64,000 bases of DNA from an uncultured Verrucomicrobiae bacterium. GTDB lineage: Bacteria > Verrucomicrobiota > Verrucomicrobiia > Chthoniobacterales > UBA10450. Below the pieces are notes generated by a model. It was not told where the DNA came from. It made no database searches and saw nothing but the letters and a program-made list of their open reading frames with translations. Location: positions 1,671,602-1,735,601 of the forward strand of contig CAWFGO010000001.1 in assembly GCA_963815455.1 (NCBI GenBank). Direction: 5' to 3'. The translations under genes and the position numbers were made by a program. This document shows, piece after piece, positions 6,797-47,820 of the stretch (within the stretch, counting starts at the first letter, position 1; every line of letters starts with the position of its first letter).

Positions 6797-6872
6797 GACC
6801 CTATCGTCTAGAGGCCTAGGACACCGCCCTTTCACGGCGGTAACACGGGTTCGAATCCCGTTAGGGTCGCCA
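6797..6872 (+). tRNA. tRNA-Glu (TTC)
   Basis: GACCCTA/TAGGGTC acceptor stem, CCGCC-CTTTCAC-GGCGG anticodon arm, GGTTCGAATCC T-arm, encoded CCA. Confidence 0.97.
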
Positions 6873-36619: not shown

Positions 36620-36682
36620 CTAATCAAGATCGACATCGACGCGCAACGCCAAAGAGCGGTTGACTGGAGCGTTTTGTTAGAC
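36620..36682 (-). repeat. Truncated terminal attC (gene-proximal half only)
   Basis: Nearly identical to 44793-44854; the distal arm is missing. Confidence 0.8.
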
Positions 36683-37186: not shown

Positions 37187-37315
37187 AGGTCTAACGAGAA
37201 CAAGATGAGCGACGGCGGACGGGGGCGCGCGTTGCTCGGAGTGGAAGGGTGAAAATCATCTCAAATGTGGAGCGCACGGCGGTCCGCCGTTCGCTGCATC
37301 GCCTTATAGGTTAAC

Positions 37316-37617
37316 CAGAGTTGTTCATGATCTGCGAAGGGGAGCGCGACAAAAGCGGCTCCCTCATCACCATCGACAGATTGTGAACAACTCTGCGGCC
37401 TCCAAAATGTTGAGCGTTGATAAGTCACCCGTTTTAATTCTTTTTCCACTTTGGGAGAACACGCACCGGCCCGTTACGAATATCCATTGCATGCGGTTCC
37501 AAGACCACTGTAACCAGACTTTCGGACGGGCTCGGTGCGCTCTCGTTCGACAAACGAATTCTCATTTGCCGACGCGTGTTCAACGCCTCGACTATAAGGC
37601 CTTCGCAGAACGGGAGC
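37316..37617 (+). ncRNA. Predicted bridge RNA of element A
   Basis: 5' hairpin (12-bp perfect IR 37316-37327/37384-37395); stem-loop 37463-37538 containing TAACCAG (rc of target CTGGTTA); stem-loop 37539-37617 containing CTATAAG (rc of donor CTTATAG). Confidence 0.75.
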
Positions 37618-37683
37618 AATTGCGTGTTTGCCCAAAAAGGCAAGATTAAAACCTCAATCCAACCAGAAAGGAACCAAACTCCC

Positions 37684-38952
37684 ATGAATCAAACCAACCA
37701 ATCCTTGGCCGCTTACATTGGCCTGGATCGATCGGATAAAAAAATCAACGTGAGCCTGCAGCGAGCCGGTGTTGCCAAAATTGAACGCAGCACCATCAAA
37801 GGCAGTGCCGAATCGCTTCATACCTGGGTGGCCGCGCTCTGCGCTCGGTTCCCGCATCAACGCGTGGCCATCTCTCTGGAGCAGCCGGCGGCCGGGCTCA
37901 TCCACGCGCTGATGGGTTACGAGTTCATCGTTCTGTTTCCCATTAATCCGGTAACCCTGGCCCGGTATCGCGAGGCCTTTACTCCGAGCCGGGCCAAGGA
38001 CGATCCCACGGATGGCGATTTTCTATGTGAACTGGTGGCGTTGCATGGCGAGCAACTCAAAGCCTGGCAACCCGATGATGTCGCTACCCGCAAGCTGCGT
38101 CACTTAGTCCAGGCCCGGCGCCGCAGTGTGAACCTGCGCACCCGGCTCTCCAATCAGCTCAAAGCGCTGTTGAAAAGTTATTTTCCCCAGGCCCTCGAGC
38201 TCTGCGGTGAGGACCTGACTACGCCGATGGCTTGCGCTTTTTTACAAAAATGGCCTTCTCTCCAGCAGCTCAACAAAGCGCGCCAAGAAACGATCCGCCG
38301 CTTTTATTATGCTCACAATGCCCGGCGCGGCGGTGTGATTGAAAAACGGCTTGCTCTGATCGCCCAAGCCGTCCCTCTGACTAACGATGCCGCTCTGATC
38401 GAAAGCTCGATCGTTACCGTTCAAGCGCTGGTTTTGGCCTTGCGCGCCGTTCACACTGCCATTGCCCGATACGATCGCGAGATCGGCCGCACCTTCGCTC
38501 AGCATCCCGACGCTTCACTCTTTGCCGCTCTGCCTGGCAGCGGCACTGTTTATAGCCCCCGGCTCCTGGCCGCCTTCGGCTCGCGGCGTGAGATCTTTGA
38601 AAACGCCGAATCCATGCTCAACTTCAGCGGCATCGCTCCGGTGCTCAAACGCAGTGGCGCCTCCACCACCATTGTTCGGCGTTACGCCCGGCCCCTTTTC
38701 GTTCACCAGAGCTTCATCGAATACGCTAACGAATTGATCCGGCATAGCCTCTGGGCCCGCGCCTTCTACCAGATGCACAAGGAAGCCCAGAAAAGTCACT
38801 GGGTCATCATCCGCGCCCTGGCTTACAAATGGATCCGGATCCTCTTCCGCTGCTGGCAGGAGCGCACCCCCTACGACGAATTGCGCTACCTCAAATCCCT
38901 CCAAAAAAGCCGCTCACCCTTGCTCCAATATCTCGCCCAACCAACCACTTAA
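37684..38952 (+). CDS. IS110-family DEDD recombinase/transposase A
   Basis: YIGLD, SLEQ, AKDDPTDG, LPGSG, GIAPVLKRSG (catalytic Ser), RALAYKWIRI. Confidence 0.95.
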   Translation: MNQTNQSLAAYIGLDRSDKKINVSLQRAGVAKIERSTIKGSAESLHTWVAALCARFPHQRVAISLEQPAAGLIHALMGYEFIVLFPINPVTLARYREAFTPSRAKDDPTDGDFLCELVALHGEQLKAWQPDDVATRKLRHLVQARRRSVNLRTRLSNQLKALLKSYFPQALELCGEDLTTPMACAFLQKWPSLQQLNKARQETIRRFYYAHNARRGGVIEKRLALIAQAVPLTNDAALIESSIVTVQALVLALRAVHTAIARYDREIGRTFAQHPDASLFAALPGSGTVYSPRLLAAFGSRREIFENAESMLNFSGIAPVLKRSGASTTIVRRYARPLFVHQSFIEYANELIRHSLWARAFYQMHKEAQKSHWVIIRALAYKWIRILFRCWQERTPYDELRYLKSLQKSRSPLLQYLAQPTT

Positions 38953-39024
38953 CCCGCCTCAATAACCTCACTCAAAACTATTGACGGACTACCTCAGATG
39001 TCTGGTTAGATGGTGGACGTGGCT

Positions 39025-39270
39025 TCATCTCGGATGGTGAAAGAGACTCTTCATAAAATGGTAACCATGATATCCGACGATTACCACGAGCGACCAAAAT
39101 CCCGTGCAAACGATTACAGCGAGAGCCTTCGCGAGTAATAGTTGCGGCCATGTGCAATCACATGCAGGGGCTGCGAGCAAACCCGACATCACTCCAAGAA
39201 AGAAAACGGCGTATAGAAAGAAGCGATGAGGTCTCTGATCGAGTGTTGGCTCTTCAATGGGCTTCATCAT
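39025..39270 (-). CDS. Cassette 10: small two-TM protein (MKPI family)
   Basis: MMKPI...GYHGYHFMKSLF; similar to 44162-44404. Confidence 0.7.
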   Translation of the reverse strand: MMKPIEEPTLDQRPHRFFLYAVFFLGVMSGLLAAPACDCTWPQLLLAKALAVIVCTGFWSLVVIVGYHGYHFMKSLFHHPR

Positions 39271-39421
39271 CTAACGAGACGGAAGTGAGCTACCGCCACC
39301 GAGAGCGAGCGGGGCTCGAAGTAAAGAGGTTCTAGTCATCTGAAAATGTGAGCGTACAACGGTCCGCCGTTAGATGCCATGAAGGGTTGAAAAGCGTGGG
39401 CAAAACGGGCACACGCGTTGT

Positions 39422-40542
39422 ATGAAAAACAAAACAACAACAACCCTTCATGGCGGAGAGAAGTTTAACAATTCAAGCGCCCCTGGCAATGGGGCAGTGA
39501 GGCGGGTGTGGAAGCTTGGGCTGGACGTGGACCTGCGTTTTATGGTGGTGGCGATCCAGTGTGGGCGGGGAACGATTGGGCCGGCGCGGAAGTATACTCG
39601 CGAGCAGTTGCTCGAGTGGGTGAAGCAAAAAGTGGGTGTAGGCGATGTGGTCTACGCGGTGTGGGAATGCTGCGGATTTGGGTACACGTTCACGAGCAAT
39701 TAACTCAAGCGGGAGCAAAGAGCGTCGGGACGACCCCGATGCGATTAAATTTGGAGCGGCGGCGGAAGAACGACCGGATGGATGCGCGCGAGTTGTGTGT
39801 GCGATTGAGCCGTTACCTGGATGGGCAGAGAGAGGAATTAAGACCAATCCGAATCCCGAGCCGGGCGGAGCAACAACGGCGGGAGCTGGGGCGGCAGCGG
39901 GAGTTTTGGAAACGCCAAGTGCGGCGGCTGGAGAATCACGGGCGAGCGCTGCGGATCGAGCACGAGCATGAGACGCTGGAGGCTGGGTGGGGCGGACCGC
40001 GGAAGTGGAAACGAATCGGGCCGCAGTGCAGCGAGTTTGTGCGCGGGCAGCTTGAACCGGTCATGGAACAGATCCGAGCGGCCAAAGCGCAATTGGATCG
40101 GTTGACCCAGGAGATTGAAGCGCTGGTGAGGGAAGAAAAAATCCCGACGGGATTGGGTGCGCTAACGGTATCGCTGATCGACGGGGAGGTGTGCGATTGG
40201 CAACGCTTCAAGCATCGCAAAGCCGTGGGCAGTTACACTGGGTGTTGTCCTAGCGAATACAGTTCGGCCGGGATCCAGCGTTTTGGAAGCATCGACCGGC
40301 ACGGCAACAAACATTTGCGCACGCTCCTGGTCGAGGCGGTCTGGCGACTTCTTCGCTGGCAGCCTAACTGGCATGCTCGTCAGAAATATCTGGAGAAATT
40401 AAGGCACGGCGCCTCGCTGAAAAAGAAAATCGCAGTGGCCCTGGCCCGGCAACTGGCCATAGACATCTGGCGTTGGCGAACCGGCCGGGCCAGTGCCGCC
40501 GAACTGGGCTGGAGCCTGTCTACATCCCAGGTGAAACCCTAA
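39422..40542 (+). CDS. IS110-family recombinase B (frameshift near 39690)
   Basis: LGLDVD, WECCGFGY, RKNDRMDA, GCCPSEYSSAG, GNKHLRTLLVEAVW, VALARQLA. Confidence 0.9.
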
Positions 40543-40590
40543 CAAACAGATTTAACCCTCAGCTTTTACGAAACGGAACTTCCAAGCAAA

Positions 40591-40811
40591 GTTTGATTTG
40601 GCCGCAGGGTGGAACGCTGCTCGGCGCTGGAGCTGGTCCTTTGAAACGAAGGGATCATCGCTTAGATGGGGCGCGTTCCGCCCAAAGCGGCTTCCCAAAG
40701 TCAGGCACGACATCATGGGCTCGCACAACAAAAGCGATGCTCGAATAGGAGCTGGTGACTCGCCCCGGCGAGACAACACGACAGAGGGAAGCTGCACCCT
40801 GCGGATCAAAC
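40591..40811 (+). ncRNA. Predicted seek/bridge RNA of element B
   Basis: Stem 40607-40617/40673-40683 encloses CGCTGGAGCT (rc of target AGCTCCAGCG), an inner hairpin and TTAG; second stem 40687-40696/40786-40795 encloses ATAGGAG. Confidence 0.75.
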
Positions 40812-40909
40812 CACTAAAGATTGGAAAAACCGGGAAAGGAAAAAACTAAAGAAAAACAAACAATACCCGTTCCACGGTTGACAACCCTCATAGGGGCTCC
40901 AGCGATTGG

Positions 40910-41308
40910 TTAGACCGCATTGGCAACTCCATGGCGCAATCGCCAACATACTGCCGCCCATACGAAAGGTAATACAACAAGAAGGGCTATGTCACATGTC
41001 CAGAACGCCACCGTCCAAGACAAGCTAACTAAAGTCCAGAAGCCATATCCCCGAATCTGTTGGTAAGCTATAGGCCCGAGAAAACAGGCGGGCGCAAACG
41101 AAGCGACGAGTAGTATCCAAGCGATAATTCGACGGGGGCGTACTGCGAACCAAATCGAAAGGCCAACCACGCAGCAAACCAGTACAATGACGGGCGTGAC
41201 TGTGGCGACGTCGCTAGCCCGGACGCCTTCGCCCCAGAGGGCCATTGCACAACCAGCCAACAACGGTATCCAGGCAATTGCTGTTAGCACCGAAATCACT
41301 CGGATCAT
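40910..41308 (-). CDS. Cassette 9: four-TM hypothetical membrane protein
   Basis: Hydrophobic ORF whose stop codon lies in the attC inverse core. Confidence 0.7.
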   Translation of the reverse strand: MIRVISVLTAIAWIPLLAGCAMALWGEGVRASDVATVTPVIVLVCCVVGLSIWFAVRPRRIIAWILLVASFAPACFLGPIAYQQIRGYGFWTLVSLSWTVAFWTCDIALLVVLPFVWAAVCWRLRHGVANAV

Positions 41309-41322
41309 GGCATTTCTTTGAG

Positions 41323-41445
41323 GTCTAACGAGAACAAGCTCAGCCACCGCTGACGAGAGCGAGCTGTGCTGCGGATTTCAATGTTGAAGTTGTCATATGT
41401 AAATTCTCTCGTCGGTCAGCGGTTGGCTGGAGCGATTGGTTAGAC
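41323..41445 (-). repeat. attC 8
   Basis: GTCTAACGAGAACAAGCTCAGCCACCGCTGAC...GTCAGCGGTTGGCTGGAGCGATTGGTTAGAC. Confidence 0.92.
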
Positions 41446-41457
41446 GAATCGGCATGC

Positions 41458-41889
41458 TCATGGTTTTGTCAGAACTGGCGTAACCACCGATCCATCCAAC
41501 AGCACAACGACGCGTGGGTCCTGATCCGCTTCATCTGTCGGGGTTCGATCGGCGAAGCCAATCCAATAGAACCATAGGCTGATCGGTATGTCCTGCTTCA
41601 CCGGCCGATGAAGCGCGACATAGGTGACAGGAAGTTCTCCAGTGCGGCCTTGAGACCGAAGATAGCTGCGTGCAATCTCGATGGCGCGCGAGGGAGAAAG
41701 TTCGGGGTCGCGCCGCGTGTTCCACGCGCCAGTGTCCTGTAACCTCGCCTCGGGGACGCTCCACGTCAGCTTCCAGTGGAAGCCAGTAACAGATATCAGC
41801 TCACGCGTGCCTTGCGCGGTGGATTCACCAAGCATCGCGAGCGCGAACAGCGGCAGCGAAGTAAGCAGCAGAAGCGTTGCGCGTCTCAT
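41458..41889 (-). CDS. Cassette 8: exported hypothetical protein
   Basis: Signal peptide; PELSPSRAIEIARSYL...VVVLLDGSVV. Confidence 0.72.
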   Translation of the reverse strand: MRRATLLLLTSLPLFALAMLGESTAQGTRELISVTGFHWKLTWSVPEARLQDTGAWNTRRDPELSPSRAIEIARSYLRSQGRTGELPVTYVALHRPVKQDIPISLWFYWIGFADRTPTDEADQDPRVVVLLDGSVVTPVLTKP

Positions 41890-42044
41890 TCGTCTAACGA
41901 GACCGAGCTCAGCCACCGCTGGCGGGAGCGAGCGTGGTTTGCAATGAACGTGTTTTCATAAAGGAAAGCGAGGCCGTACGCCGGCCAGCGGTTGGAGTCA
42001 TGTAGGCTTCCAGGACAGCGCCCGGAGGCACTATCCTGGAAGTT

Positions 42045-43175
42045 ATGATTACCTACAAAGTAGAAGATAACGTTGTGACCCAGTTTTCTGCAATCTTTAA
42101 AGGGCTTGGGTCGAAACCGAGTGTGATTCACATGGCGCTGGATGTCGAACTCCACGGCGGAGTGATGGCGGTGCGAGTGGCGGGCGGGCGACCAATGGAT
42201 TGCGGCCAGTGTAGCCGGAGCACGATTGCGAAGTTGGCCTGGGAACTGATTGACCGCGGGCACCGGGTGGTACTGGTGGAGGAGGCGTGCGGGTTTGGCT
42301 ACGCGTTTCATCGGCAACTGCGTGGAATGGGAGTGGAGGCGTATGTGGTGGCGACCGAGATGCTCAACCGCAAACGCAAGACCAATCGGCGGGATGCGGC
42401 CAAGCTGCTCGATCAGCTTTACGATTACGATGTTAACGGGCACAAAAAAGCGCTGCGCATAATCCGGGTCCCAACCCTCGATGAGCAGAAGAGCCGGCGG
42501 CTTTGCCGGATGCGCTCGCAGTTGGTCAAGGTGCGTAACATCATGGAAGGACAAGGCCGCGGGCTCCTGTTCGATTTCGATTACCATGAAGTGCCGCCAG
42601 GCTGGTGGGGACCGCGCAAATGGCCCAGGCTGCGGGCAAAACTTCTCCAGCACGATGCCTGGCTGATCGAGATGCTCGAGCATCACCAGCGTTTGCTCAT
42701 TGCTCAGCAGAGAAGAATTGCCGAGCTGGAGCGCGAGATCGCCCGGGAAAGTCATTACGATGGGCGCAAAGTAGCCAAGGGCCTGGGCCAAATCACCTTC
42801 GATTCTCTGCAACGCGAAGCGCTGGATTGGAAACGCTTCGCCAATCGCAGAGCGATCGGCTCTTACATTGGCTGTTGTCCGGCGGAATTTAGTACCGGCT
42901 CCAGACAAAAGCTTGGGAGTATCGATCGACTGGGTAATCGCCGCATGCGCACGCTGTTAGTCGAAGCGGTCTGGCGACTGAAAAAATGGAATCCGGGCTG
43001 GCGGGGATTTGGGAAATTTCCCCACGTCTTTGGTCACGGAGCCAGCGCCCGCGGAGCCACGCGCAAAAAAGCGGTGGTAGCCTGTGCCCGACTGCTGGCG
43101 ATCGATCTGTGGCGACTCCAAACCGGGCGGGCCACGCTCAAAGATCTCGGACTCAAACCAGCCCAGGCCCGATGA
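42045..43175 (+). CDS. IS110-family recombinase C
   Basis: MALDVE, EEACGFGY, RKTNRRDA, GCCPAEFSTG, GNRRMRTLLVEAVW; homologous to B. Confidence 0.92.
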   Translation: MITYKVEDNVVTQFSAIFKGLGSKPSVIHMALDVELHGGVMAVRVAGGRPMDCGQCSRSTIAKLAWELIDRGHRVVLVEEACGFGYAFHRQLRGMGVEAYVVATEMLNRKRKTNRRDAAKLLDQLYDYDVNGHKKALRIIRVPTLDEQKSRRLCRMRSQLVKVRNIMEGQGRGLLFDFDYHEVPPGWWGPRKWPRLRAKLLQHDAWLIEMLEHHQRLLIAQQRRIAELEREIARESHYDGRKVAKGLGQITFDSLQREALDWKRFANRRAIGSYIGCCPAEFSTGSRQKLGSIDRLGNRRMRTLLVEAVWRLKKWNPGWRGFGKFPHVFGHGASARGATRKKAVVACARLLAIDLWRLQTGRATLKDLGLKPAQAR

Positions 43176-43296
43176 ACACAGAAAAACTGTCATACGATAC
43201 CCGCATGGCTTGCTCCATCAAAGCCCCCAAAGGTTTGGTAGGGGGACTTTGATTCCGCAATCCATGCTTTAGCGAACCTCACTAAATGAATACTTT

Positions 43297-43503
43297 GGAC
43301 AGTTGGGCGACAGATCGAAGCTCTGCAGCTGGCCGGCCGCACTGGCCTGGCCGCCGTGTTAGAATGGTCGGCGCCCCTCTGTCCTCCCTCTTGATACGCG
43401 TCGAATTAGACACATTGCACTGCTCCAAGAATAAGCATGTGCGGATAGGAGTTTGTCTCGCATCCCTTCAAAAAGGAATAAGCCGAACCAAAATAGAGGG
43501 AGG
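43297..43503 (+). ncRNA. Predicted seek/bridge RNA of element C
   Basis: GGACAG..GGGCG / CGCCC..CTGTCC stem encloses CTGCAGCT, an inner hairpin and GTTAG; second stem 43383-43391/43495-43503 encloses ATAGGAG. Confidence 0.72.
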
Positions 43504-43589
43504 AGCTGTTCCGAAGCCTAACCAACTAAATCGAATGAACTAAAACCTTTTTACCTCCAAACGCTGATCCTGTTCACCACGCTTGACCC

Positions 43590-44015
43590 TCATAGGGGCT
43601 GCAGCGATTGGTTAGGCGTTTGGCGATACTCGCGTGTGACGTCCTCAATCCCCTTCGCAAGGACAACGCCCTCAAATCCCACGGCCGAAGAAATCTCCCA
43701 CGCGTGCAAAGACTCTGACTCAAGCGCTGCCTTATATCGCGTGCGATCGCTGTCCCACCGCGAGACACCATGCTGGCGATTCCACTCCGCCAAGCGGTCG
43801 GCGAACCGATCTACAAACTCGGTCAATGGAATCTGTGCGATGTCCAGGATGATCGCGCCGCCGGTATGGACGAAATGGTAAAACTCAACATCGCGGAAGC
43901 GAATGTGCGATTCCTCTGGGGGTTGTGGCGGATAGTCGTAGACAAGGTGCAGTACGATTTCGCCGCCGAACCTGCGAACTTCGTAGCCGCTGAGGTGGAA
44001 ATCGTGGAAGCGCAT
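43590..44015 (-). CDS. Cassette 7: hypothetical cytoplasmic protein (reads into the attC)
   Basis: MRFHDFHLSGYEV...ISSAVGFEGVVLAK. Confidence 0.75.
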   Translation of the reverse strand: MRFHDFHLSGYEVRRFGGEIVLHLVYDYPPQPPEESHIRFRDVEFYHFVHTGGAIILDIAQIPLTEFVDRFADRLAEWNRQHGVSRWDSDRTRYKAALESESLHAWEISSAVGFEGVVLAKGIEDVTREYRQTPNQSLQPL

Positions 44016-44021
44016 CTTTAC

Positions 44022-44145
44022 GCCTAACGAGAACAAGCTCAGCCACCGCTGGCGGGAGCGAGCTTTGCTTCAGAGTTGAATGTTGAAGTCATGTGAAAAC
44101 TAAACGTCGGAACGGCCAGCGGTTGGCTGGAGCGATTGGTTAGAT
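44022..44145 (-). repeat. attC 6
   Basis: GCCTAAC...GTTAGAT with consensus arms. Confidence 0.92.
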
Positions 44146-44161
44146 CGTTGGCGTGCCATGC

Positions 44162-44404
44162 TCATGTGCGGAGAAATAGGCTGCGGAAGAATCGGTAGCC
44201 GTGGTATCCGGCCATAATGAAGGGCCATGAGAAAAGAAAACCGCCAAACGCACAACCAATCTGAGAAAGAACGAGTTGGTATCCGCTGATATCGCACATC
44301 GGTCTGACTGCGATGCCCGCAGAGATGCCAAACGCAGCGGGGAGATACAGGGTGACAATCCGAGGAGGCTTTTTCTCCGGCAGTGATGTGTCGATCGGTT
44401 TCAC
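44162..44404 (-). CDS. Cassette 6: small two-TM protein (MKPI family)
   Basis: [16 protein letters not shown]...GYHGYRFFRSLF. Confidence 0.7.
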   Translation of the reverse strand: MKPIDTSLPEKKPPRIVTLYLPAAFGISAGIAVRPMCDISGYQLVLSQIGCAFGGFLFSWPFIMAGYHGYRFFRSLFLRT

Positions 44405-44405
44405 G

Positions 44406-44528
44406 ATCTAACGAGAATGAGCTCAGCCACCGCTGGCGAGGGCGAGCATGGACTGAAATGGATGCGCTTTCATAAATCCTGGCGAGGCACCGCGACGGCC
44501 AGCGGTTGGCTGGAGCGATTGGTTAGAT
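44406..44528 (-). repeat. attC 5
   Basis: ATCTAAC...GTTAGAT with consensus arms. Confidence 0.92.
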
Positions 44529-44731
44529 GGTGGACGTGACTTCACGAGAAACGTGGTAGGAAAAGTCTGTGGGAGAGAAGGGGGCTTTCGCCTCATGGGA
44601 AATAATGAATCAGAATCGGGAGAAAAGCGCTACTTCAAAATGAGCGGTGTAATCAGACGATTCCATTGAGCGCGTCGAATCTGCTTCGAGGACTTGGCCA
44701 TCAGTCCTTCTGTGGAAGCGCGCAGAACCAT
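44529..44731 (-). other. Cassette 5: ~200-bp cassette with only a ~33-codon ORF
   Basis: Between attC 5 and attC 4; the ATG in the core site gives MVLRASTEGLMAKSSKQIRRAQWNRLITPLILK*. Confidence 0.7.
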
Positions 44732-44855
44732 CTAACGAGACGGAGCTCAGCCACCGCTCCGGCAGCGCGGCTCCGCAACGGTTGAGAATACACTAATCAA
44801 GATCGACATCGACGCGCAACGCCAAAGAGCGGTTGGCTGGAGCGATTTGTTAGAT
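44730..44855 (-). repeat. attC 4
   Basis: ATCTAACGAGACGGAGCTCAGCCACCGCTC...GAGCGGTTGGCTGGAGCGATTTGTTAGAT. Confidence 0.92.
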
Positions 44856-44879
44856 GATTTCGGTGAAGGGCTCAACATA

Positions 44880-45203
44880 TTAGCCCGCCATCAGGTAAGC
44901 GTTGACAATCTGGATTACGAACGCGACCCCAAGCAGCGTCCAGCCGCGCTCTGCTCGGAGAAAGAAAACAAAAACAGCGACTAATGCAACATAGAACAAC
45001 GCCCCCCAGCCGGAGATAAGACTTACCATGAGCGTCCAGGGAACGATGCCGCTGCCGAATGGATTTATCCAGCCCACGCGAATCCACCAGCCAAACGTGA
45101 TCGCGATCATGCATGTAACGACAAACAGGAACGCCCGTCCAGCTACCGAGCGAAACGCCGCGGTGAATATGGATAGCGGATAGTCAGCGGCCGGTTCGCG
45201 CAT
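44880..45203 (-). CDS. Cassette 4: small membrane protein
   Basis: Three hydrophobic segments; lies between attC sites. Confidence 0.68.
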   Translation of the reverse strand: MREPAADYPLSIFTAAFRSVAGRAFLFVVTCMIAITFGWWIRVGWINPFGSGIVPWTLMVSLISGWGALFYVALVAVFVFFLRAERGWTLLGVAFVIQIVNAYLMAG

Positions 45204-45206
45204 ATC

Positions 45207-45330
45207 ATCTAACGAGAACAAGCTGAGCCACCGCTGGCGGGAGCGAGCGTGGCAAACAAGGGGAACTGTTTCATAAAATCAAACGTGGACTTCACAGCGG
45301 CCAGCGGTTGGCTCGAGCGATTGGTTAGAT
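45207..45330 (-). repeat. attC 3
   Basis: ATCTAAC...GTTAGAT; close copy of attC 1. Confidence 0.92.
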
Positions 45331-45351
45331 GTGTTAACGCTCATGCGCAGC

Positions 45352-45669
45352 CTAACGGCTCTGTCCATTTGTTCTTGCTCGTCGCCGAAGAAAAACATCG
45401 AAAAGAGCGCCCCAAACAATCCACTGAAGTCCGCCGATCACCAAAACCGCGACGGCAAATTGCCACTCTGGCCACAAAGTCGCTCTTAACATTGTAATGA
45501 TGAGACTCAAAGGAAGATCTAGCTGGATTGGGTAGAGCCAGAACATCGGACTGTTTGGGTCCGTGCTCACCACGGTAATCCGCCAGATCCACGCGACGAA
45601 AAGTGTGTGCAAACACAAACAAATCAAAGCAGACGGCCACCGCCTCATGATAGCAACGACGCTCAACAT
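45352..45669 (-). CDS. Cassette 3: small membrane protein
   Basis: PMFWLYPIQLDLPLS...IGGLQW; hydrophobic. Confidence 0.68.
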   Translation of the reverse strand: MLSVVAIMRRWPSALICLCLHTLFVAWIWRITVVSTDPNSPMFWLYPIQLDLPLSLIITMLRATLWPEWQFAVAVLVIGGLQWIVWGALFDVFLRRRARTNGQSR

Positions 45670-45790
45670 CTAACGAGAACGAGCTCAGCCACCGCTGGCG
45701 GGAACGAGCTTTCGTAACATCGACAACTGTTTCATAAGGAAAAGCGAGATACCGCGACGGCCAGCGGTTGGCTGGAGCGATTGGTTAGAT
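45668..45790 (-). repeat. attC 2
   Basis: ATCTAAC...GTTAGAT with consensus arms. Confidence 0.92.
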
Positions 45791-46089
45791 GACTTCGGTG
45801 TGCCACGAAAATGGCGCCTAACTAAAGCGATGACACTGGCCAACCACGCAATGAACACCACGGCTATTCGCGTGTATAACTCCGCGCGATACCACTCGAC
45901 CCAGCCCCGAAACCACTCGGGTGGGAGAAAACGAAAGTGCCAAATCTGGCGAATCATATCGGCGTCTGTCTCTCCTGGCCGCGACATCCAAACGATTGCG
46001 ACGAGCATGGCGCTCACTAACCACAACGCTAGCGCCGCGGCAAGCAACGTGACAACCAACAGCTGAATAACTAGTGCGCGCTTAGTCAT
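45685..46089 (-). CDS. Cassette 2: two-TM protein whose ORF runs through most of attC 2
   Basis: ATG overlaps the GTTAGATG core; tail SNQSLQPTAGR is attC-encoded. Confidence 0.65.
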   Translation of the reverse strand: MTKRALVIQLLVVTLLAAALALWLVSAMLVAIVWMSRPGETDADMIRQIWHFRFLPPEWFRGWVEWYRAELYTRIAVVFIAWLASVIALVRRHFRGTPKSSNQSLQPTAGRRGISLFLMKQLSMLRKLVPASGG

Positions 46090-46211
46090 CTAACGAGAAA
46101 AAGCTGAGCCACCGCTGGCGGCGGCGGGCGCGGCAAGCATCACGAACTGTTTCATAAAATCAAATCTGGACTTCACAACGGCCAGCGGTTGGCTCGAGCG
46201 ATTGGTTAGGT
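46088..46211 (-). repeat. attC 1
   Basis: ATCTAAC...GTTAGGT with consensus arms. Confidence 0.92.
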
Positions 46212-46663
46212 CGCCTGTCTACATCTGGTGCTCGTATCAATGACTTCGCCATTGCTCGCGCGAATTACGGTGACGGCGACGCCGCCCATCATGTTGGGTG
46301 GCAGATAACCTCCAAACGATCCAAAAGTCGCCGGACCGGACGGCATAAAAGCTGTTCTGCTGCGATCTCGCATTTGCCGTAAATGGCGCCACAAACCGCG
46401 CTGTGAATGGCCGCTGCTACCTCCGCCGTTGGGACGACAGGCGATGCATTGCTCATCGGTGACTCGCTGCGATACCTGCCCGGCGTGCTGGGTAGAGAAG
46501 ATCGTCGGCGGTTGGTGGCGCGAGCCGCAGCGAGCAATCCCAGCCCGATGCCCAACGATGTAACCGGCTGCGCCCAGATGCCAATCGCAACGCAGAACAA
46601 ACGGGTGACAACAATGATCCGAGGAGGCTTTTTCTCCGGCAGTGATGTGTCGATCGGTTTCAC
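46206..46663 (-). CDS. Cassette 1: MKPI-family N-terminus fused to a YbbC/YhhH-like (NTF2-fold immunity) domain, frameshifted
   Basis: [11 protein letters not shown]....AIYG...EQ, then in another frame [24 protein letters not shown], matching the family pattern VPD.ETA.....IYG...G.LP....GGV....I....G.I. Confidence 0.55.
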
Positions 46664-46664
46664 G

Positions 46665-46690
46665 ATCTAACGAGAAGTGGACGGAGAAAC
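46665..46690 (-). other. Putative attI site (core GTTAGAT at 46671-46665)
   Basis: Last core site before intI, with no palindromic arm beyond it. Confidence 0.7.
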
Positions 46691-46764
46691 CATGTAATTA
46701 CTTTGCGGAGTTTGTCTGTCTAATTGGCTTGCCTGCCCGGGAGCAGCCGAATAAAACTGTGGTC

Positions 46765-47820
46765 ATGTCCTCTGATTTAACTCTGGAAGAATCAGCTGCC
46801 AAGTACAAAATGCCTGCGGCTCAGGAGGCCCAGCCCAGGTTGCTCGATCGGGTCCGCGATGTCATGCGGCTGAAGCATTATTCTTTGCGAACAGAGAGAA
46901 CCTATTGGGAATGGATCGAAAGATTCATTCGTTATAACGGCACAGGGCTGCCTCCAGCGGCCTGGCCGCATCCCTCTAAGCTGGGTCCGGACGAAGTGAC
47001 GGCCTTTCTGACTCATCTGGCCCGGGACCTGAACGTTGCCGCTGCAACCCAGAATCAGGCCTTGAGCGCGTTGTTGTTTCTTTACAAGGAAGTGCTCAAG
47101 AAAGACATCGGCTGGCTCGATGGAGTAGAGCGAGCAAAGAAACCGTCGCGCCTTCCGGTGGTGCTGACGCGCAGCGAAGTAAAACGCATTTTCGAGCATC
47201 TCCGGGGCACGCCTCGATTGATGGCAGGCCTGCTTTACGGTAGCGGGCTGCGCTTGATGGAGTGCGTCCGGTTACGCGTGAAGGACGTAGATTTCGGCTA
47301 CACGCAAATCGTGGTGCGTAACGGCAAGGGTGGAAAGGATCGAGTGACGATGTTGCCGGTCAATCTAGCCGTGTCGTTACAACTCCACCTCGATAAGGTG
47401 CGGGCGCAACATGCAGAGGATCTGGCCAACGGGTTCGGTGCGGTTTATCTGCCCGACGCGTTAGAGCGAAAATATCCCAACGCGGCGCGGGAGTTCGCCT
47501 GGCAGTATGTGTTTCCCTCGCGCAAGCTCTCGATCGATCCGCGTTCGGGCTCGGGAGGAGAACCGCCATTTCGGGGGCGACACCACGCCAACGAGACCTG
47601 GTTACAACAGGAGGTGAAGCGAGCCGTACGCGAATCGGGCATCGATAAAGCAGCCAGTTGTCATACGTTGCGACACTCATTTGCCACACACTTGCTGGAA
47701 AATGGCTCCGATATCCGGACTGTTCAGGCCTTGCTCGGGCACAAAGATGTAAGCACGACCATGATTTATACGCACGTTTTGAACCGGCCGGGGATTGGAG
47801 TGCGAAGTCCGCTGGACTAA
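46765..47820 (+). CDS. intI: Integron integrase
   Basis: [31 protein letters not shown], IntI-specific insertion [12 protein letters not shown]...[38 protein letters not shown]. Confidence 0.98.

Follow-up and report, generated by a model that had tools for sequence, protein, structure and literature searches.

Three probably RNA-guided IS110-family elements split attC sites of a Verrucomicrobiota integron

Three different elements of the IS110 family of insertion sequences each split an attC site of one chromosomal integron in an uncultured Verrucomicrobiae bacterium. The integron lies in a 64,000-nucleotide (nt) stretch of contig CAWFGO010000001.1 (positions 1,671,602 to 1,735,601). We call this whole stretch the window; it comes from a Verrucomicrobiota genome. 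The integron is complete, with an integrase gene, seven intact attC, three split ones and one partial terminal attC. We conclude with considerable confidence that the three elements, here named A, B and C, are RNA-guided, are unrelated or distantly related to one another, and have inserted in the R''–L'' arm of attC, antisense to the cassettes. This reading is carried by the positions and ends of the elements, by the sites that re-form on their removal, by a conserved RNA structure, and by guide–target matches that co-vary across relatives.

Element A is IS110-type, 1699 bp long, and occupies positions 37305–39003 on the plus strand of the window. The large part of the attC that it splits (37188–37304, minus strand) comprises R', L', loop and L'' and ends in the core CT. 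The small part (39004–39012, minus) is a G plus the R'' box GTTAGAT. Element B (39372–40894, plus) is IS1111-type and 1523 bp long. It separates a large part at 39268–39371 from a small part at 40895–40915, both minus, the latter made up of GGCTCCAGCGATTG and the R'' box GTTAGAC. Element C (41994–43596, plus, possibly up to 2 nt further right) is also IS1111-type, with a length of 1603 bp. Its attC is divided into a large part at 41891–41993, whose end is uncertain by 2 nt, and a small part at 43597–43617 (GGCTGCAGCGATTG plus the R'' box GTTAGGC), again on the minus strand. Joining the flanks gives attC of 126 (A), 125 (B) and 124 nt (C) that align over their full length with intact sites. In an HMM (hidden Markov model) match the large part at A covers model positions 2–118. 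On an HMM built from 58 intact attC of the same genome, the restored sites score 102.4 (A), 104.6–105.0 (B) and 100.3 bits (C). Intact attC have a median of 95 bits and a range of 58–116. The minimum-energy DNA fold of the restored A site pairs AAC with GTT.

To place the boundaries, 81 variants of the two cut positions were scored for each element. In every top-scoring variant (the best eight for A, six for B and five for C) the left and right cuts move in step. This fixes the excised lengths at 1699, 1523 and 1603 bp and leaves no net duplication of the target; terminal inverted repeats are also absent from the elements. The A junctions read ...CGCCT|TATAGG...GATGTCT|GGTTAG, with CT at both, and this CT is a shared core typical of the IS110 family. 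An alternative boundary, in which the ends of A share GGTTA and the attC would measure 130 nt, was ruled out by the 124–127 nt of the attC family and by closely similar sites.

The ends of B and C needed more attention. A first-pass annotation, made from the letters of the window, had placed B at 39374–40896. The last 2 nt of that right end differ among the B copies of this genome (GG, CG, CG and AG), just as the dinucleotide between GTT and CT varies in 44 empty attC ends (CG in 19, GG in 17, AG in 6). B therefore ends 2 nt further left, at 39372–40894, and a shift of −2/−2 also gives the best score. Published work on the IS1111 group describes extensions of 7 (or 6) nt to the left and 3 nt to the right of the subterminal repeats (PMC11187229). 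The corrected B ends leave exactly 7 and 3 nt outside the repeat ATGA(A)GGGTTG. For C, shifts of 0, −1 and −2 score equally; GG lies on both sides, so the ends are ambiguous by 2 nt. Its subterminal repeat is imperfect (ATG(T)AGGCT against ATGAGGGT, about 8/9 by eye), and ends at 41994–43596 give extensions of 6 and 3 nt, which favours them under the same rule. The annotated ends of A stand as they were, while those of B are revised and those of C carry the 2-nt ambiguity. At the B junctions (39370–39373 and 40893–40896 in the window; loci L004, L005 and L006 elsewhere) the left dinucleotide is always AG and the right one is GG, CG, CG or AG. If AG is the donor core, the two junctions each time retain cores from different parents, which may bear on the position of strand exchange.

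The same annotation had described three different IS110-family elements, each splitting an attC, antisense to the cassettes and without target duplication, and the restored sites and equal cut shifts bear this out. The transposase genes lie on the plus strand and the cassette open reading frames (ORFs) on the minus strand. B and C share one slot, GTT^NGCT, and A adjoins the gene-proximal R'' box, also as described. The asymmetry of non-coding DNA noted there holds as well. A has 379 nt upstream of its gene and 51 nt downstream, which is the IS110-group layout. B and C have about 50 nt upstream and 352 nt (B) or 421 nt (C) downstream, the layout of IS1111.

The gene of A, tnpA (37684–38952, plus), is an intact frame of 422 amino acids (aa), and tnpC (42045–43175, plus) is an open frame of 376 aa. 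In the window, tnpB (39422–40542, plus) is broken by a 1-base deletion near 39690, at alignment column 320, into frames 39422–39703 and 39508–40542. On contigs C3 and C2, B has an intact frame of 386 codons (intact protein P0001). A Pfam check agreed with the family assignment, with PF02371 (the C-terminal Transposase_20 domain) found in all three proteins: 36.1 bits in TnpA, 57.8 bits in the 344-aa window ORF of TnpB and 49.8 bits in TnpC, against a cut-off of 21.3. PF01548, the RuvC-like DEDD domain of the N-terminus, exceeds its cut-off of 29 in A alone (76.8 bits; 19.4 in the intact B copy and 12.8 in C), the domains of B and C having diverged too far to reach it. On NF033542 (IS110 family RNA-guided transposase), with a cut-off of 140, TnpA scores 130.0 bits and the proteins of B and C 135.3 and 139.7 bits, all three with E values of 1e-37 to 1e-40, a narrow miss by divergent family members.

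The upstream region of A contains a predicted bridge RNA core (37459–37627, plus), in which a long-range stem surrounds a target-binding and a donor-binding loop. RNAalifold predicted 23 pairs from the upstream regions of 12 relatives, 16 of them with compensatory changes on both sides. The predicted structure includes the long-range stem, a stem closing an internal loop, and an inner hairpin. According to PMC11208160, a bridge RNA has a left guide with the sequence of the top strand and a right guide complementary to that strand, and the core is present in both. The left target guide of A, CAUUGCAU (37485–37492, plus), follows the attC arm CATCGC plus CT with a 6-nt run that includes one G-U. 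It is mismatched at the first core base and fits CATCGCAT-type attC fully. The right target guide, UAACCAG (37511–37517, plus), pairs with CTGGTTA, which is the core and the start of the R'' box. In the second loop, the left donor guide CUCAUUUG (37561–37568, plus), read from the alignment, matches the right end CTCAGATG with two mismatches, and relatives' left donor guides fit their own right ends better than A's does. The right donor guide, CUAUAAG (37592–37598, plus), pairs with CT and TATAG of the left end; CTATAA or a close variant stands at this position in 10 of 13 relatives. Ends of the form TATAGG... on the left and ...TTGACnGAnnnnCTCAGnnnnCT on the right are common to A and its relatives.

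Guides and targets change together across this family. Among 12 elements, the longest run between right guide and target averages 6.2 nt for an element's own target and 4.4 nt for the targets of others (n=128). For the left guide the corresponding means are 7.1 and 4.1 nt. The observed sum of guide–target runs was reached by none of 2000 permutations. Between the close relatives L022 and L024, left guide and target change by the same base (CTGGCG versus GTGGCG). The right flank of L024 (from 2779) starts TATCGG, like the left end of the sister element in L022, and has no GTT box; it may be the remnant of a second, adjacent element.

The ends of A also hold a candidate promoter. TTGACG (38981–38986, plus) lies in the right end and, when the ends are joined, stands 17 nt before TATAGG (37305–37310). 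Both hexamers are conserved across the A family, and junction promoters have been described for the IS110 family (PMC11187229). The joined ends, TTGACG-17-TATAGG, are thus a putative junction promoter. A promoter scan found nothing exceeding shuffled sequence; the proposed promoter forms only on joining the ends. Between it and the guide loops, the left end of A forms a long hairpin at 37317–37395. L019 and L020 have a hairpin there with other sequence, and the acidobacterial relatives are without one.

For B and C, the guides lie downstream of the gene. The B guide CGCUGGAGC(UGG) (40625–40636, plus) pairs with plus-strand GCTCCAGCG just right of the insertion point, and G-U pairs extend across that point. 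The C guide CUGCAGC(UG) (43323–43331, plus) pairs with plus-strand GCTGCAG, also just right of the insertion point. The two guides fall in homologous columns of the aligned downstream regions and differ by the G/C that separates their targets. Each occupies the 5' side of a loop with a strong closing stem and an inner hairpin. By a hand calculation, the 9-nt match of the B guide has a chance probability of roughly 0.02. On the 3' side of the loop, B has UUAGAUG (40662–40668, plus), identical to its left junction TT|AGATG, and C has GUUAGAA; both resemble the last target bases followed by AG. This likeness hints that the 3' side in B might serve as a second guide. Further downstream, AUAGGAG in B (40745–40751, plus) is identical to the joined ends ATAGG|AG and is homologous to AUAGGAGU of C (43445–43452, plus). 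Both look like donor guides.

The distribution of B agrees with its guide. The genome has five copies with 96–100% identity. Four of them retain both flanks, and these share one insertion nucleotide and one orientation in attC of four different arrays. A single pattern matched 49 attC ends, of which 44 are empty and 5 occupied. B is present in three of six CTCCAGCG ends and in one of the 43 others, this one being among the 12 CTCCATCG ends. All 19 ends with CTCGAGCG or CTGGAGCG are empty. The chance that at least three of four B insertions fall within the six CTCCAGCG sites is 875/211,876, or 0.004 (hypergeometric, by hand). A and C are single-copy in this genome.

These data bear on whether something other than their own guide RNAs leads the elements to attC: recognition of the folded hairpin, or the integrase acting on them as captured cassettes. 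The site is structured, group IIC-attC introns also home there in antisense orientation (PMC3001079), and its palindromic arms will produce some guide-like matches by chance, the 7-nt match of C being an example. However, none of the insertions is at the R' crossover, and an attC is absent from all three elements. The guide loops co-vary with targets across relatives, non-attC targets included, and B picks the attC subtype that fits its guide (3/6 CTCCAGCG, 0/19 CTCGAGCG and CTGGAGCG). We therefore regard homing by shape or integrase as improbable and favour RNA guidance. An even poorer account is that insertion sequences simply accumulate in cassette arrays, where they do no harm, with no site specificity at all. 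Cassettes far from the integrase are thought silent, and all three split sites are among the four complete attC furthest from intI. Yet the same nucleotide is used by four of four B copies, by A and a miniature relative of A described below, and by relatives in other phyla, and the orientation is always identical. That such precision should arise by harmless accumulation is scarcely credible.

Relatives of TnpA, at 39–50% identity, occur in 17 of 401 genomes of the phylum, the window's own included. A species-representative collection gave 607 candidate stretches, of which 599 encode a TnpA relative; 79 loci were kept. The left ends of this family start with TATAG and the right ends hold TTGAC...CTCAG. 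Of the 82 loci that encode a full-length protein, a strict pattern places a GTT box at most 2 nt from the right end in 16; the right flank is of another kind in 51 and too short to tell in 15. Six more GTT-type loci were recognized by eye (L023, L055, L069, L086, L089 and L096). None of the 15 other-flank loci tested has GTT at that position. The minimum-energy DNA fold of the restored site forms a long, imperfect hairpin that pairs AAC with GTT in eight of 16 GTT-type loci tested (A, L038, L045, L046, L052, L062, L070 and L094). Restored sites recur in the flanks at cassette spacing, with nine copies in L095 and five in L070, and two or three repeats are present in L094, L071, L103, L044, L045, L046 and L038. 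Among the hosts of GTT-type elements are two groups of Acidobacteriota (Pyrinomonadaceae and Blastocatellia) and marine Gammaproteobacteria such as Thalassotalea, Colwellia and Psychromonas. Further hosts are an Opitutaceae metagenome-assembled genome (MAG), a cyanobacterium and a Patescibacteria-labelled MAG.

A quick, midpoint-rooted tree of the A family, with long branches and with the attC-type rows mapped by hand, contains an acidobacterial group (7 rows) and a marine group (9 rows) that are purely GTT-type. Both branch below a 40-row proteobacterial clade in which most targets start with AAGC, AACC or ATGC. In the same tree A joins Verrucomicrobiota elements on a long branch. Homing to attC may thus be ancestral in the A family, with retargeting later. 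Whether A belongs to a large cross-phylum set of IS110-type elements that read the attC R'' box, and so to a second and unreported lineage of RNA-guided integron parasites, is in our view an evenly balanced question. With B and C counted too, the family would then have acquired attC targeting no fewer than three times.

Several further observations stand apart from this survey. L044 and L046, from one Pyrinomonadaceae contig (overlapping ranges, 478124–492418), hold two near-identical copies of an A-family element, each in an attC-like site of one array, about 7 kb apart. Two plasmid matches, H55 and H72, were considered as integron-borne elements and shown not to be. A 109-bp miniature A-like element is present in the window's genome at L002:1499–1607 (minus strand; G000 C1:1237395–1237503), directly after a housekeeping gene. 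It keeps both ends, has no gene or guide region, and is 83% identical to A over A's last 42 bases. Its insertion point corresponds to that of A, in a terminal attC remnant that reads GCATCGC-AT|...|GGTTAGATG, with AT as the core, not CT.

Targeting of attC by one IS1111 subgroup, near the 5' end and antisense to the cassettes, is already in print (PMC3001079; PMC11187229), as is RNA guidance of both the IS110 and the IS1111 subfamilies (PMC11187229; PMC11208160); the first-pass annotation had rightly treated both as established. B and C are like this IS1111-attC group (ISPa21, ISPst6, ISKpn4, ISPpu24 and others, also ISPa25, with their seekRNAs) in having a downstream non-coding region, subterminal inverted repeats and short asymmetric extensions. 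They likewise insert near the R'' (5') end of attC, antisense and without duplication. The group was represented by a single proxy, L118, which belongs to the ISPpu24 family and comes from a class 1 integron on a Pseudomonas aeruginosa plasmid; a published supplement table gives ISPpu24 as 79% identical to ISPst6. The attC that L118 interrupts is that of aac(6')-IIa; the insertion is in the R''-side arm, and the element runs antisense to the cassettes. Its guide loop layout is the same as that of B and C. Its slot is 6 nt from the R'' box, whereas that of B and C is 14 nt away, and the group's hosts are Proteobacteria rather than Verrucomicrobiota. B and C are 24–27% identical to L118 and 37.5% to each other, while L118 is 38% identical to an IS4321-like element. 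The nearest relatives of B and C, Verrucomicrobiota elements with other targets, are 33–39% identical to them. In a quick tree, B and C are split from L118 with a support of 100 and L118 groups with the IS4321-like element, so that at least two target changes are needed. Judged by this one proxy, B and C act like IS1111-attC elements and are not members of that clade. They appear to form a separate lineage, undescribed in the searched literature.

A is more distant still. In BLASTP, TnpA and TnpC show no significant similarity (E 8–9), and TnpB is not among the TnpA hits; A is therefore a further independent lineage, and the earlier proposal of independent lineages on attC is borne out. Its upstream non-coding region, CT core, TATAG left end and right-end TTGAC, which would form a junction promoter, match the IS110 group (IS621, ISEc21 and the ISEsa2 family). 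So does its two-loop RNA, with a left guide that copies and a right guide that complements (PMC11208160). The likeness to IS621 is one of published features. On enterobacterial plasmids, transposases annotated as ISEsa2 family share about 42% identity with TnpA. A differs from the group in its target, which is the R'' box and arm of an integron attC. Full-text searching found no report of an IS110-type (upstream-RNA) element that targets attC; ISfinder and the founding IS1111-attC papers lay outside the scope of that search. A Shewanella study describes IS110-family insertions in integrons, none of which, it states, interrupts an attC (PMC9229058). This target class therefore appears to be undescribed for the IS110-type subfamily in the searched literature, and widespread across phyla. 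Group IIC-attC introns likewise home to attC near the 5' end and antisense (PMC3001079), but they are ribozyme and reverse transcriptase retroelements, whereas the elements here are DNA elements with DEDD/serine recombinases.

A number of points count against the account given above. All three proteins narrowly miss the NF033542 cut-off (130–140 versus 140), and PF01548 is below cut-off for B and C. Two of the 8 nt in the left donor guide of A are mismatched, as is the first core base in its left target guide. A is single-copy even though many fitting attC are empty, and it may be inactive. Of the 16 GTT-type relatives folded, eight did not form the hairpin as strictly defined. In B and C the match is convincing in the 5' guide alone (9 and 7 nt), and a match of 7 nt, as in C, is common by chance; the second guide spans 4–7 nt and is uncertain. 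Finally, the loss of attC function discussed below is argued from general attC anatomy alone.

The features of A suggest how it would move. Joining of the ends would create the TTGACG-17-TATAGG promoter, and the bridge RNA would be transcribed from the left end. One loop of this RNA would pair with the attC arm CATCGC and with CTGGTTA, and the other with the element's own ends. The DEDD/serine recombinase would then swap strands at the CT core, as known from the behaviour of the family. In B and C, the guide RNA would be encoded downstream of the gene, and the 5' side of its target loop would pair with (N)GCTCCAGCG (B) or GCTGCAG (C). By this pairing, both would land between GTT and NGCT. On this model the joined ends should read ...TTGACGGACTACCTCAGATGTCT|TATAGG... 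in A and ...CTCATAGG|AGATGCC... in B. We infer that the RNAs are made and are bound by the proteins, and we infer the chemistry of strand exchange in the same way.

Insertion should also affect the integrase reaction. A parts the R'' box from the rest of attC, and B and C part R'' together with some of L''. Binding of IntI requires R'' paired with R'. With R'' torn from R', a split attC should therefore be dead to the integrase. The cassettes flanking such a site would then form a single fused unit, with the element as part of it.

RNA guidance to attC does not say whether the window copies can still move. All three may be fossils of past invasions, none able to move alone now, and we give this possibility serious weight, somewhat short of an even chance. 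B is frameshifted, and C is single-copy with a changed catalytic motif. By alignment, B keeps the acidic residues D-E-D-D, and C has N at the third position: its codon 114 (AAT, 42384–42386) gives KTNRRDA, versus KNDRMDA in B and KTDxxDA in seven of seven relatives. The third aspartate is one we take to be catalytic, and C is probably without catalytic activity. A is single-copy, has two donor-guide mismatches, and leaves many fitting attC empty. Against this, A keeps its frame and all family-invariant residues, that is, all 82 columns invariant in a 7-row family alignment (by definition, since A is one of the rows). The window copy of A looks intact by this measure, the sole one of the three that does. 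B copies that are 99–100% identical, two of them with intact frames, point to recent activity. Even the frameshifted window copy of B could be mobilised by these two intact siblings elsewhere in the genome. The fossil reading concerns activity alone and does not conflict with the mechanism proposed above. It does temper one earlier claim. The first-pass annotation was right in its core reading that independent RNA-guided lineages converged on attC. It overstated them as a source of working recombinases and new programmable scaffolds, with B frameshifted, C carrying N in its DEDD motif and the A donor guide mismatched twice.

The integron itself is well supported. The integrase gene intI (46642–47820, plus, a listed ORF) reaches 454.7 bits on the integron integrase model TIGR02249, whose cut-off is 265, with the family match beginning at residue 67, and is also matched by PF00589 and PF13495. 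The array lies to its left. At the array edge beside intI, TCTAACGAGA (46666–46675, strand unassigned) is an exact copy of the motif that opens every attC on the plus strand, and this TCTAAC boundary is probably that between attI and the first cassette. Six intact attC with their cassettes fill 44021–46211 on the minus strand (44021–44145, 44405–44528, 44729–44855, 45206–45330, 45667–45790 and 46087–46211). A seventh (41322–41445, minus) lies between the sites split by C and B. The seven measure 124–127 nt. A partial terminal attC (36621–36681, minus), an nhmmer match to model positions 66–124, closes the array. On the plus strand every attC has GTCTAAC at its start, GTTAGAY at its end, and unpaired T and G in the 3' half; on this last feature we take the plus strand to be the attC bottom strand. 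None of five cassette ORFs tested has a Pfam match. Rfam at gathering score finds nothing in the window except a tRNA gene (6797–6869), and with E values up to 1 it adds a single chance snoRNA match.

Across the genome as a whole there are 84 attC-like nhmmer matches in about a dozen arrays, two integrase genes above the TIGR02249 cut-off, that of the window included, and several broken ones. The second gene above the cut-off (454.4 bits) and split or truncated ones lie at C1:1495265–1496200, C3:784758–785697, C2:707907–708374 and C1:691661–691942, each by an attC array. The second intact integrase has the same orientation as its 30-site array, in contrast to the divergent layout in the window. 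A fragment like the C-terminus of TnpC (47% over residues 297–370) lies at C1:1479897–1480124, outside that array and about 800 bp from its first attC.

Cassette arrays are usually viewed as the work of the integrase alone. By splitting attC, elements such as these should lock neighbouring cassettes to each other, and they can spread between arrays; B is present in four. That an IS110-type branch, besides IS1111, has repeatedly been aimed at attC widens the natural target range of bridge recombinases. The value of this window for tool building is limited, because two of its three copies look defective. The A family supplies sets of guide–target pairs that co-vary naturally, and there would be dozens of these if the cross-phylum reading of the A family is true.

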